Source: Octopus vulgaris
Lineage: Eukaryota
Reading direction: 5' to 3'
Assembly: GCA_951406725.2 (NCBI GenBank)
Contig: OX597814.1
Location: forward strand, 111,228,001-111,292,000
Length of the DNA stretch: 64,000 nt
How positions within the stretch are numbered: position 1 is the first letter of the stretch; every line of letters begins with the position of its first letter. Under the pieces are notes generated by a model. It did no database searches, was not told the DNA's origin, and saw nothing but the letters and a program-made list of their open reading frames with translations. The translations under genes were made by a program, and so were the position numbers. Shown here one piece after another: positions 4,155 to 51,245 of this stretch.

Positions 4155-4217
4155 TGACTGGACATTTTATAGAAACATCACCTCTGTGCAAAGACTTTCA
4201 TTGCCAAAATGCACACA
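4155..4217 (+). CDS. Coding exon A of the Pro-repeat / transcobalamin-beta-like gene (xTGHFIETSPLCKDFHCQNAH)
   Basis: tttcag acceptor, gtgagt donor, 63 nt, phase 1-1, joins exon B in frame. Upstream exon(s) not located. Confidence 0.65.
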
Positions 4218-4772
4218 GTGAGTATTGCATTTTCATTTTTTCTCAGTCCTTCATCATCATCATTTAATGTCCTCTCTCCATGCTGACATAGATCAGACGG
4301 TTTGATTGGAACTGATGAGCCCGGTTCCAGTCTGATTTGGCATAGTTTCTATAGTTAGATGCCCTTCCTAATGCCAACCACTCCAGGAGTATAGTGGGTG
4401 TTTTTATGTGCCACTGGCACAAGTGCCATTTTCATGACACCGGCAATGACCATGACTACACTTCATGGGTGCCTTTAACATGACACTGGCAACGATCACA
4501 ACTAAGATTCACAGGTGCCTCATGCCGGTGGCACGTAAAAAGCACCATCTGATTATGGTCGATACCAGCTCCTCTGGCCCCTGTGCCGGTGGCACGTAAA
4601 TAGCACCCACTACACTCTTGGAGTGGTTGCCAATAGGAAGGGCATCCAGCTGTAGAAACACTGCCAGATCAGATTAGGGCCTGGTGCAGCCTCCTGGCTT
4701 CCCAGACCCCAGTCGAACCATCCAACCCATGCCAGAATGGAATATGGACGTTAAACGATGACGATGATGATA

Positions 4773-5184
4773 TAGGGTGCAGTGAATAAACTCTCATCTA
4801 AATTACACAAAAATGAAAATAACATTGACATCTCAGGCCACATGGGAAGATGAATGGAGGCATAACATCGCCATCACTAGTGATCACTCGAAGCACCATG
4901 ATGTTGACTGGATGTTTGATTTTTATCACTTTCGGTACATGTCCTCATATTGACAGGCAAACACTCTAAAATGTTTGTATTGGAGCTTCCAGTGTAAATG
5001 CCAAACAGTACAGCATGTCATTTCCAAATTTCTGGCAGACCAAATTGCATCATGGTGCTGTTTTTCTCAGAGACAATACCCAACTGACCCTACTATACTG
5101 TGTAGTCAACAAAATCAAAAACAAACGATGCACATGCGTGAAATTAAAAATATAAAATAGCCACAGTTTACCCATCATACCCTG
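4773..5184 (-). mobile_element. Internally deleted derivative of the maT-like transposon at 58.8-59.8 kb
   Basis: Segments match the reverse complement of about 58805-58905 and 59390-59475; ends resemble AGGGTG...ACCCTG TIRs. Confidence 0.65.
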
Positions 5185-5716
5185 TGTGTGTGCGCACGCC
5201 TGTGTATTCCTCCTCCCCTTCCTTCTCCCCCTCCTCTCTCCCCCCTCCTCTCCTCCCCCTCTTCTCCTCTCTCCACACTACACCACACAACTTTACACAT
5301 CACATCATATATGATGTGCCATACTAATACATACTAATACATACACCAACCCTATACATACACACGTCCAGACCTCTCATACACACTAATACTCTCTCAT
5401 ACACACACACACACACACACACACACACCCTTATACATACTAATACGTACTAATACATACTAATACATACACCAACCCTATACATACACACATCCAGACC
5501 TCTCATACGCACTAATACTCTCTCATACACACACACACACACACACACCCTTATGTTGGAGCTGGTCACTCAACCCTATTATCTCCCCTAATTTCGCTCT
5601 CGCGTCTCATGTTTGATCTTTGACTTCTGGCCAAAATCAGATCGCCATGTTGGTTCGTTAGTTACTGCACGCATTTTTTTTCTCTCCTTCTTTCTGTGTT
5701 TTTTTCTCTCTGTGTA

Positions 5717-5754
5717 TCTTTCTGTTGAAGAGCGTAGGCTCGAAACGTTAAAGA
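5717..5754 (+). ncRNA. Minimal hammerhead ribozyme-like motif (Penelope type; core A6 changed to U)
   Basis: UCUUU-CUGUUGAA-GAGC(GUAG)GCUC-GAAAC-GUU-AAAGA, with perfect stems I and II. Confidence 0.55.
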
Positions 5755-6469
5755 CTTGTTTTATTTATATTTCCTGAGCGCCATACTAATACAATTGTTT
5801 GTTTGTTTTCCACCTGCCTTCGTCTTTTGTCTATTTTCATAAAGCTTCCCGTATATATATATATATATATATATATATATATATATATATACTCACACAC
5901 ATGATTATGCATGTGTCTTTGTGCTTGTGTCCCCATAGATTGGATGTTCAGTGTTGGTTTGTTTATGTTCAAATAACTTAGCAGTGTTGGCAAAAGAGAT
6001 CAATAGAGTAAGTGCCAGACTTAAGAAATAAGTACCGGGATTGAAATCATTTCAAGCAAATATTTCTGTTAATTTCATTAATGAGATTAGAAAAGCAAAA
6101 CTGTTAAATACACAATCAAGGCTGTTTACTTTTAGAAATGTAGATGCTTTGAGAAATATGGCCTTTTTTTATATCTAACCAAAGACTTTTTCACACAAAA
6201 TATTCATTTTAAATTTTGGCCCAAGGTCAGCAATTTTGAGGATAGCAGGTGGTAGGGGGTGGGGGGCTAGTCGATTGCATCAACTCCAGCACTCAACCGG
6301 TACTTATTTCATTGACCCCAAAACGATGAAAGGCAGAGCTGGGCCTTGGCGGAACTTGAACTCAGAACATAATGACAGACAAATGTTGCTAAGCATTTTG
6401 CCCGGCATGCTTACAATTCTGTCAGCTCGCTGCCTTAATAATAATAATGATAATAATAATAATAATAAT

Positions 6470-7335
6470 AATGCCCTGATGCAGTACCAGGCAATGGCTC
6501 TCATGGCTTCTGATCTTAACTGATTGGAAGTGTTATCATGTACATTGTTTTGTCTTGGTATAAAAGATGGGCTACAGCAAATATTCTGCTCAATACCACA
6601 GATTTGCTTGTCAGTTGTTTGACCTTAACCAGTTGAGCATGTCCCTTAGTGGCTGACGATATGTGCATCTCTGATCACGAGCAGAAGTAGTGGGGGAGCA
6701 TCATAGCCATGTGTTGAGAGGGATTCTTTGGGGTTTGAATAATTCACCTCTGGAAATATGGGTGGTTCTTTCAACATCCTTAAACAACCCTTATTCAGGG
6801 ACCGTTTGAGCGGGATGGGCTACTCGACCTGAAGAAAATTCTAACTGGGCCCCACCTGCAAGGTCATGTGCTGTTTATCTTGATATGAGATCACCATGTC
6901 GCGCACATATGGTTGTGATGCATGTGCCTGGTGTGCCTTTATCAGACGGGTAGTCATGATGGGTATATTTTACCCAGGGTATATTTTACCCCAGTGTCAC
7001 TTTGATGGCATGAACTGCTCTCTCACTCAATAATAATAATAATTACCCTGATGCAGTACCAGGCAGTGGCTCTCATGGCTTCTGATCTTAACTGTTTGGA
7101 AGTGTTATCTTGTACATTGTTTTGTCTTGGTATAAAAAATGGGCTACAGCAAATATTCTGCTCAATACCACAGATTTGCTTGTCAGTTGCTTGACCTTGA
7201 CCAGTTTAGTATGTCCTCTTAGTGGCTGGTAATTTGTTCATCTCTGATCATGAGCAGAAGTAGTGGGGGAGCATCATAGCCATGTGTTGAGAGGAATTAT
7301 TTGGGGTTTGAATAATTTACCTCTGGAAACATGGG
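6470..7335. repeat. Interspersed repeat with a tandem partial duplicate (6470-7030 and 7045-7335), flanked by (TAA)n
   Basis: CCCTGATGCAGTACCAGGCA...CCTCTGGAAA block present twice at high identity. Confidence 0.7.
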
Positions 7336-49009: not shown

Positions 49010-49137
49010 ATTTACAACTGTTTTCTACATCAACAATCCTCTAAGACAAGGCAAATATCTAAATAGTATCAATGGTATAAATGTGACTGCCACAACAACC
49101 TGGGAAATTTCTAAAGAGAATGGACCCATTGATTTAA
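49010..49137 (+). CDS. Coding exon J (core of the transcobalamin-beta/DUF4430-like domain)
   Basis: tttcag acceptor, A|gtacta donor (weak), 128 nt, phase 2 to 1. EFTTVFYINNPLRQGKYLNSINGINVTATTTWEISKENGPIDL. Confidence 0.78.
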
Positions 49138-49307
49138 GTACTAGTCTTTCTAATCTTTCTTTCCCTTCTTTTCTTTTTTTTTGTTTGTTTCTTCTTTTTG
49201 TTTATTTGTTTGTTTCTTTTTCTTGCTCTTCTTTTCCACTTGTCTTTCTTTTAATTTTTTCTTTCTTTCTATCTTTCTTCGGTAAGGTAACAGGTTGGAA
49301 GTTAGCA

Positions 49308-49575
49308 ACTCTCTCTCTCTCTCTCTCTCTCTCTCTCTCTCTCTCTCTCTCTCTCTCTCTCTCTCTCTCTCTCTCTCTCTCTCTCTCTCTCTCTCTCTCT
49401 CTCTCTCTCTCTCTCTCTCTCTCTCTCTCTCTCTCTCTCTCATACACACACACACACACATATACATACACACTCTCTCTCTCTCTCTCTCACACACACA
49501 CACACACCCACACCCACCCCCCCCACACACACACACACACACACTCTCTCTCTCTTCCTCTCCCCCTCTCTCTCT
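49308..49575. repeat. (CT)n and (CA)n microsatellites
   Basis: Read directly. Confidence 0.95.
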
Positions 49576-50525
49576 TTTTTTTTATAATAGGTGCTTTTAC
49601 ATGCCACCAGCATGGGTGCCATTTGTGTGACCCCAGTATCTGTCACGACTGCAATTTTACTTGGCTTCATGGGTCTTCTTCTCAAGCATGACATAATGCC
49701 AAAGATCTTGATCATTGCCTCCGTGAAGCCCAATACTCAAAAGGAGCTCAACCACTTTGCCTGTGTGAGGCCCAACATTTGAAAGGGGCTTTTTACATGC
49801 CACCAGTTATGTGACACCAGCATCAGCCATGTCTACAATTTCACTTGGCTTGATGGGTCTTCTCAAGCACGGCATATTGCCAAAGGTCTCAGTCACTAGT
49901 CATTGCCTCTGTGAGGCCCTAAGTTCAAAGATCATTCTTCACCACCTCGTCCCAAGTCTTCCTAGGTCTGCCTCTACCACAGGTTTCCTCCACAGATCAG
50001 CACTTCTTTACACAGCTGTCTCAATAACATATTCATCTAACCCATGCTAGCATGGAAAAACAGTTGTAAAACAAACAAATGAATATGAAGAACTGTTGTT
50101 TACTGTATGTTATTAATCACAGTCATATATGACAAAATTGACTGAAGGCACGTGGCCAAGTAGTTAGGGTAGTCAGTTCAGGATTGTAAGGCCATGAGCT
50201 TAATACCTGGTGGTGCATTATGCCCTTGAGCAAGACACTTATTTTACAATGCTCCAGTCCACTCAGCTGGTAAAAATGAATCTTGCCTGTATTTCAAAGG
50301 ACCAGCCATGTCATATCCTGTGTCACATCGAATCTATGTTATGGGTAAGAGTGTCAGTGGTGTGCTCAGCCACTTGCACATTCATTTCACAAGCAGGCTG
50401 TTCCATTGATCAAATCAATTAGAATCCTGGTCAGAGTAAGTGATGTAGTGCCAGCTTTTATATAACAAAATTATGATTAATGTCTTACAAGATGTTCCAA
50501 GTATTAAGGTAAATTTTCTAAAGCT

Positions 50526-51066
50526 TTAACTCTTTAGCATTGAAACTGGCCCAACCATTCTACCTGTTTTATGTTCAAACTGGCCAGATCTGGTTTTTCA
50601 CTCATACCCTACAATGGCATTCAAAACCTAAACTATCATACCATTGAAATGTCAAAGCTTTGAGATAATACATCATTAATTCAAAACAATGTGAATAAAT
50701 AGGCCTTACATTTGTGACAGAATAAACTGAATGCTCTCATCTAGGGGTTTCGGTTGCGCATACTATAGCAGTCACAGGGCAGTGGTCCGTATGGTCCCGC
50801 AGTTTCCATCTAACTAGGAATATTAGGGTCTCATCCATTGCCTTGTATTCAAGATCCTCAGCATGACATCCTGCTAGTTCAAAGCCAGGAATCTGATCTT
50901 TTAGGTCCTGCCAATAACTAAATCCATGCCCTGCTGTTGATGCTTCGATTTATTGTCATTAAGGTTTGTCTGTCTCTTACCCTTTGACCTTCCTGAAGAT
51001 TTCTCTCCCTCCAGCATAGATCTCTAGGTCAATGGAGCACGCAGGTACTTCACCACTAAAGGGTTA
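50526..51066. mobile_element. piggyBac-type MITE interrupted by an insertion of about 320 bp
   Basis: TTAACTCTTTAGCATT...CTGAATGCT[insert]AAAGGGTTAA; related pieces near 17700 and 46230. Confidence 0.5.
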
Positions 51067-51186
51067 AATTATGTTTCTTTATAAATCCACAGAGCAACTT
51101 GGTACTCTTTGTTACTCCTTGTGGTGCACCACTTAAGAACTACTAATTTATTTGTTTACCAATAATTATACATTTATTTATTTCAG

Positions 51187-51245
51187 ATTTGGGTGTCGTG
51201 GCACAAACTGGCGACACGTTCACCATTAACAACACCAGCGTTTAA
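51187..51245 (+). CDS. Terminal coding exon K (NLGVVAQTGDTFTINNTSV*)
   Basis: tttcag acceptor, phase 1, TAA at 51243-51245. Confidence 0.78.

Follow-up and report, generated by a model that had tools for sequence, protein, structure and literature searches.

We wondered whether a chain of exons on the plus strand of a 64,000-nucleotide (nt) stretch of Octopus vulgaris DNA (contig OX597814.1, positions 111,228,001 to 111,292,000; hereafter the window) constitutes one gene, and what its product could be for: it would couple a proline-rich pentapeptide array to a C-terminal segment reminiscent of the cobalamin (vitamin B12)-binding beta domain of transcobalamin (TC-beta). We find that the gene is real: no fewer than 12 of its exons lie in the window, and the product, likely secreted, has ~1,000 amino acids (aa). 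Judged from alignments and intron positions, the last ~104 residues of this product are very probably a TC-beta homologue. The domain family is known and the gene has an annotation as uncharacterized, but the architecture is new. As to function, we tentatively favour a secreted mucus or matrix glycoprotein in which a polyproline rod would carry a corrinoid-binding head.

Exon chain and transcript evidence

The 11 exons of the original prediction (A to K, with C2; Table 1) were rebuilt exactly from AG/GT sites, reproducing the junction phases 1,1,1,1,0,1,1,1,2,1 and giving 956 full codons and then a stop, with no internal stop. The list itself proved incomplete, as a 12th exon is contained in the O. 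sinensis RefSeq proteins and RefSeq uses a different acceptor for exon F. Nor is the gene hidden, as had been supposed: it is already annotated as LOC115218319 in O. sinensis and LOC106871109 in O. bimaculoides, under names such as "uncharacterized" or "basic proline-rich protein-like". With exon D as query, 2 proteins among 74 candidates were returned, one from each locus (100% and 76%, respectively). The three O. sinensis isoforms seen (P0001, P0003 and P0004) span exon B to exon K, and the O. bimaculoides record P0005 runs from within the repeat through to exon K; all four are RefSeq annotation models. The repeat exon is thus joined to the C-terminal exons in models of two Octopus species, in agreement with the single gene proposed. 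After the repeat, the window and P0001 differ at 1 of 435 aligned residues, apart from the 9-nt acceptor choice at exon F, while identity to the O. bimaculoides orthologue is 58–80% by region and lowest in exons I and K. Poly(A)-signal hexamers follow exon K at 51268 and 51361.

The open frame of the repeat is no evidence for coding by itself, because 3 of the 6 reading frames of the 15-bp array are open and none of the 45 point mutations possible in the consensus unit introduces a stop in the coding frame. An intronic 15-bp tandem array at 19194-19469, which serves as a negative control, likewise reads as an open pentapeptide frame. Since such a frame is expected by chance, the case for coding rests on splice sites and homologues. 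A satellite artefact was rejected, the peptide repeat being conserved and spliced in the models of two species. A second intronic tandem array, with a 14-bp unit, lies at 39380-39627.

Sequencing runs listed for 24700-25150 (n = 24) fall into groups: 12 runs from five studies contain 0.69 of the words, 6 contain 0.52–0.57, two very large ones 0.98 and four none. Exon D accounts for 284 of the 421 possible words of this interval (0.67). The 0.69 group, in which no run is recorded as RNA, fits spliced transcripts and is only consistent with expression. Homologue searches, of low sensitivity with such short queries, returned only two Octopus clusters and no match in squid, cuttlefish or other molluscs; a tblastn search of plasmids gave 2 chance matches only, and a metagenome scan no match. 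Accession and keyword searches gave no tissue, either in full texts or in the supplements of PMC8976471, PMC7693380 and PMC12961712.

Paralogues and the C-terminal domain

Two further octopus genes have the 1-2-1 exon triplet of the C-terminal domain in common with the window gene. One was matched on contig C30 by a genome search with exon J. It comprises a signal exon and exons of phases 1-2, 2-1 and 1-stop, encoding a 148-aa beta-only protein whose domain is 34% identical to that of the window and whose layout also places a signal exon first; it is the best candidate for the ordinary B12 carrier, and a likely one. The other is a tandem paralogue upstream of the window, in which several short Pro/Tyr-rich exons (~57–69 kb before the window) precede the beta-domain triplet; its domain is 21% identical to that of the window and keeps a Tyr-X-Pro motif. 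The tandem paralogue yielded no signal exon, and one junction in it does not close in phase. Additional genome searches, which were insensitive, gave no extra copies beyond the three genes, and an exon-wise search, also insensitive, gave no alpha-domain gene. Weak genome matches (L007, L008, L023 and L025) were read and set aside as unrelated or non-coding.

Gene structure is the strongest evidence for homology of the C-terminal domain. Introns 7 and 8 of human TCN2 lie after c.1106 (phase 2) and c.1222 (phase 1) (PMC4805327; articles are cited by PMC number throughout). They convert to mature Thr351 and Gly390, the 18-residue offset for mature numbering having been verified with p.E371fs (PMC11311337). 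The octopus domain introns have the same phases, 2 and 1. In tool alignments Phe350 is matched by an octopus Phe, and the first intron lies one codon past it. The second lies four codons past a Pro paired by eye with Pro386; its position agrees exactly with this anchor, while other anchors shift it by 1–2 codons. Exon J measures 128 nt against 116 nt for TCN2 exon 8. The exon structure of the beta domain thus seems to be common to molluscs and vertebrates.

For profile comparisons, prokaryotic genomes were scanned with a short motif, which gave 127 loci, 125 of them usable. PF14478 matched 68 of the 69 sequences sent to Pfam. Thinning at 70% identity left 80 sequences, and 78 remained once 2 poor scorers had been dropped. 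With hhalign, three octopus domains scored 18.8 against these 78 DUF4430-type sequences (E 0.0065, 72 collinear columns), a value reached by 0 of 150 column shuffles. Four octopus domains scored 24.4 (E 5.6e-4), which 0 of 200 shuffles reached (mean 9.8, standard deviation 2.1), and the reversed profile scored 10.0. As a yardstick, true human TC-beta is matched at no better than E 0.52 by a profile of 33 sequences drawn from this DUF4430-type set. When the ESM Atlas was searched blind, DUF4430 clusters came first (0.89, 185 shared features) and third, which is a lead only. Moreover, equivalents of Tyr362, the conserved hairpin aromatic of TC, and of Trp377, the latter presumably a ligand contact in TC, are kept in all four octopus domains, as placed by eye on the printed TC-beta sequence. 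The window protein and its orthologue keep the 15-residue spacing between the two, and the window protein also keeps the helix motif (residue numbers from PMC5599065).

Several results weigh against the reading of a secreted homologue that still binds its ligand. PF14478, whose curated cut-off is 23.8 bits, and PF01122 gave no match at E<=10 with any exon, the whole protein or the domain. With a DUF4430 hidden Markov model built from the 80 sequences, the window domain scored 0.0 bits, a value that 95 of 300 shuffles equalled or exceeded; the corresponding figures were 0.9 (56/300) for the tandem paralogue, 3.7 (3/300) for the O. bimaculoides domain and 4.7 (1/300) for the C30 paralogue. The hhalign probabilities are low (5.8%, 3.7% and 29.9%). 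The aromatic-X-Pro motif near the C-terminus is kept in three of the four octopus domains and lost in the window protein, the ligand-anchoring hairpin is ~5 residues longer than that of human TC, and identity of the domain with the O. bimaculoides orthologue is just 68%, as might be expected if the binding site were decaying. In addition, exon B is where all three of the O. sinensis isoforms seen start, and none has a signal peptide. No transcobalamin turned up among PDB sequences when the domain, a paralogue exon or either of two alignments served as query, and a genome search with the PF14478 family passed over all three genes, the window locus included. Both AlphaFold models, with a predicted local distance difference test (pLDDT) below 40 (for one, pLDDT 37.5 and a predicted template modelling score of 0.22), are too poor to judge the fold. 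What bears out the proposed likeness to TC-beta is the comparison of profiles, together with the kept residues and the places of the introns, rather than the HMMER or structural match put forward as its check.

In exon K, six consecutive residues differ from the O. bimaculoides orthologue, and the aromatic-X-Pro motif is thereby removed; the change hints at rapid evolution at one spot.

N-terminus, repeat array and known relatives

Exon A is absent from the RefSeq proteins seen, whose first Met requires an upstream exon ending in A, as exon A does. A 62-nt candidate signal exon was located at L017:3095-3156 (contig positions 111201095-111201156), 26.9 kb before window base 1. With a splice-site matrix trained on known exons, which did not include it, only one site scored higher across the 102 candidate rows from 124 kb. 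Its features are a long pyrimidine tract, a 22-nt leader, an ATG, a run of 13 codons that are mostly hydrophobic, and a phase-1 donor of consensus type, and it cannot be a coding part of the upstream paralogue because it lies after that paralogue's stop. Spliced to exon A, it yields a 999-aa open frame in which Val at -3 and Gly at -1 would suit the signal-peptide cleavage rule. All N-glycosylation sequons listed earlier are present, plus one further, and 8 of 8 lie outside the repeat. Secretion through the candidate exon is quite probable; the candidate exon and the sequons fit the earlier proposal, whereas the RefSeq isoforms seen, which lack a signal peptide, do not.

These data also bear on whether the model is faulty, such that translation would start at exon B and the product stay unsecreted, the repeat and C-terminal exons would belong to separate transcripts, or the beta likeness would be due to chance. 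The start of the RefSeq isoforms fits this, as do the failure of Pfam and of fold searches (Foldseek and VIA, on low-confidence models) to return a match, and the weak score of the exon J donor next to a stronger in-frame donor at 49281. On the other hand, models of two species have this exon chain in common, the exon triplet recurs in three genes with intron phases as in TCN2, and the sequons and the high-scoring candidate signal exon agree with secretion. A faulty model is thus very improbable. Donor 49281 would lengthen exon J (49010-49281) by 48 T-rich hydrophobic codons in frame with exon K; it is unused in RefSeq and probably a chance product of a low-complexity intron rather than the source of a membrane-anchored isoform.

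The array in exon C consists of 100 units on a 15-bp repeat, with 193 Pro and no Lys. This matches the ~100 PP(G/V)(N/D)(S/F/Y) repeats reported before, the formula fitting exactly in 71 of the 100. Exons C, 16872-16958 and C2 have acceptor, start and end motifs in common and look like duplicates, one of which would have expanded a 15-bp unit. By its composition, the array may form an extended polyproline-II spacer, possibly O-glycosylated. The middle segment encoded by exons D and E is cationic and amphipathic, with Lys-Lys pairs and a net charge of +6. It gave no family in Pfam and no usable match in the ESM Atlas, and it could be a processed or membrane-active module. The same ~100 residues (24862-25068 plus 35857-35989) are 80% identical between species, which makes them the most conserved region. 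Cys pairs and Tyr-rich segments might permit disulfide or tyrosine cross-linking. Together, the Lys-free proline rod, Cys pairs, Tyr-rich blocks, 8 sequons and cationic segment suggest a secreted material.

Table 1. Exons of the window gene (window positions) and octopus paralogues
Feature	Position	Strand	Remarks
Exon A, Cys-X4-Cys mini-exon	4155-4217	+	Phase 1-1; AG/GT rebuild
Exon B, second Cys-X4-Cys mini-exon	7953-8009	+	Phase 1-1; N-terminus of P0001, P0003, P0004
Exon C, 516 codons, pentapeptide array	10527-12077	+	Same peptide repeat in O. sinensis, O. bimaculoides
12th exon, Pro-rich, 87 nt	16872-16958	+	Phase 1-1; P0001, P0003, P0004; diverged in P0005
Exon C2, Pro-rich	20590-20667	+	Phase 1-1; splice-site flanks resemble those of exon C
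Exon D, His/Pro linker, then start of Trp-containing cationic amphipathic segment	24755-25068	+	Phase 1-0
Exon E, remainder of middle segment with Cys-X-Cys	35857-35989	+	Phase 0-1
Exon F, Tyr/Asn/Gln-rich	41106-41303	+	Acceptor 41106, or RefSeq's 41115 (9 nt downstream)
Exon G, Pro/Asn/Thr-rich linker	44508-44672	+	Phase 1-1
Exon I, first part of transcobalamin-beta-like domain, two Cys	47673-47799	+	Phase 1-2
Exon J, 128 nt, Tyr362 and Trp377 equivalents	49010-49137	+	Phase 2-1; equivalent to exon 8 of human TCN2 (116 nt)
Exon K, coding part and stop	51187-51245	+	Splice rebuild
C30 paralogue, beta-only transcobalamin-like gene	G000:C30:4273600-4282424 (L002, L010, L011)	-	Signal exon and three exons
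Tandem paralogue	L020:8619-8748, L019:939-1087, L019 from 5704	Same as window gene	~44–69 kb before window

The beta domain of transcobalamin, intrinsic factor and haptocorrin (transcobalamin-like clade of the SLBB beta-grasp superfamily, a clade in which the helix is followed by an inserted hairpin, PMC1796856; DUF4430, PF14478) has in common with the octopus domain its C-terminal position, its length of ~100 residues, the collinear profile match, the Tyr362 and Trp377 equivalents and the TCN2-like phase-2 and phase-1 introns. The octopus protein differs in having no alpha6/alpha6 barrel, an extra Cys pair, a longer hairpin, no aromatic-X-Pro motif, a domain under the Pfam cut-off, and ~890 residues of repeat and low-complexity sequence ahead of it. 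The barrel is missing as predicted: PF01122 gave no match in P0001, P0002, P0004 or P0005, and the chain has no room for it. Because the alpha domain is absent, the protein is not a member of this trio. The zebrafish proteins Tcnba and Tcnbb likewise have a beta domain without an alpha domain, and the C30 paralogue shows their stand-alone layout, unlike the window protein, in whose 999-aa model the domain does not stand alone. The alpha domain was probably lost independently in octopus and zebrafish. In zebrafish, tcnbb is skin-enriched (PMC6778804).

For the repeat, Pfam reports PF02095 (Extensin-like), at 163 bits for exon C against a cut-off of 105 and at 76 and 119 bits for the shorter isoforms. 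This family and the octopus array have a Pro-Pro-X-X-X pentapeptide register in common, which in an animal gene likely stems from one expanded 15-bp unit and would be convergent. Plant extensins and proline-rich wall proteins carry Ser-Pro4 and Tyr-Lys cross-linking motifs; a plant extensin was rejected, since the 100 units contain neither Ser-Pro4 nor Lys. Collagens are built of Gly-X-Y triplets, and a collagen was rejected as well (period 5, Gly in only 55 of 99 full units).

The RefSeq models seen for LOC115218319 and LOC106871109 describe the same gene, without exon A and the signal exon, with a shorter or truncated repeat and with no C-terminal domain assignment. Known beta-domain fusions involve toroid, Ig, FIVAR, fasciclin, propeller and HTH domains, and no proline array in the available portion of PMC1796856. 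The literature searched, which lay outside subscription papers and bioRxiv supplements, gave no cephalopod transcobalamin-like protein and nothing for the locus identifiers, and no DUF4430 paper among those listed concerned a mollusc by its title. The architecture, not recognised when first noticed, thus has no description in the literature searched. Profile annotation misses octopus TC-beta genes, of which one genome holds three candidates: a small beta-only gene and two Pro-rich derivatives.

Possible function and surroundings

We consider it quite possible, if somewhat short of probable, that the protein is a mucus or matrix glycoprotein with a corrinoid-binding head. The 100-unit proline array would form an extended rod ahead of the beta domain, the divergent TC-beta homologue would still bind B12-type corrinoids, and the rod would display the binding site within mucus or another secreted matrix. 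Its role could be uptake, or a haptocorrin-like withholding from microbes. TC-beta on its own has a lower affinity for cobalamin but does bind it (PMC5599065, PMC11107200), and the beta-only zebrafish proteins Tcnba and Tcnbb bind it tightly (review PMC10778862). Since the hairpin contacts the ligand mostly via backbone atoms (PMC1796856), sequence divergence does not exclude binding.

The same protein could instead be purely structural (cuticle, egg cement, mucus scaffold or similar), its beta domain having lost B12 binding and serving as an end domain for folding, assembly or docking, a possibility that we take seriously at somewhat less than even likelihood. The chain is mostly low-complexity Pro/Tyr/Asn sequence, the beta-domain exons I and K mark the minimum of the orthologue identity, the aromatic-X-Pro motif is lost, and the beta-only paralogue could take the carrier role. 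However, the Tyr362 and Trp377 equivalents are kept at their 15-residue spacing, though the fold alone could explain this.

A soluble B12 carrier or scavenger in the role of transcobalamin or haptocorrin, to which the Pro-rich extension would add only size, protease resistance or residence time, is improbable. It would agree with the tight cobalamin binding of Tcnba and Tcnbb (PMC10778862) and with the lack of an alpha-domain gene among the genome matches, but that search was exon-wise and insensitive, and all three genes had likewise escaped the PF14478 search. Moreover, the ~850 extra residues, with their Cys pairs and Tyr-rich blocks, exceed what a carrier needs.

The glycoprotein with a corrinoid-binding head would have arisen from a short gene with signal and beta parts, similar to the C30 paralogue, that gained phase-1 Pro/Tyr-rich exons, one of which expanded its 15-bp unit. 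A more specific and rather doubtful version is that an alpha-less TC-beta family expanded in octopus and that the phase-1 Pro/Tyr exons turned one product into a cross-linkable secreted polymer whose B12-binding heads are fixed within a glandular or surface matrix. If so, this would be a structural material that traps vitamin B12 and thereby feeds the animal, or starves or selects surface microbes. Should the long form bind B12, a biomaterial-type repeat protein would be coupled to a nutrient-binding domain; otherwise, this would be a clear instance of recruitment of a ligand-binding domain into a fast-evolving secreted structural protein.

As regards the surroundings, introns and flanks contain what we take from their translations to be reverse-transcriptase-type (long interspersed nuclear element) remnants, all on the minus strand (1539-2150, 31263-33032 and 61416-62264). 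A multi-exon ankyrin-repeat gene, presumably ANKRD11/12-like, lies ~86–128 kb from window base 1 on the minus strand (L165-L169), tail to tail with the window gene.

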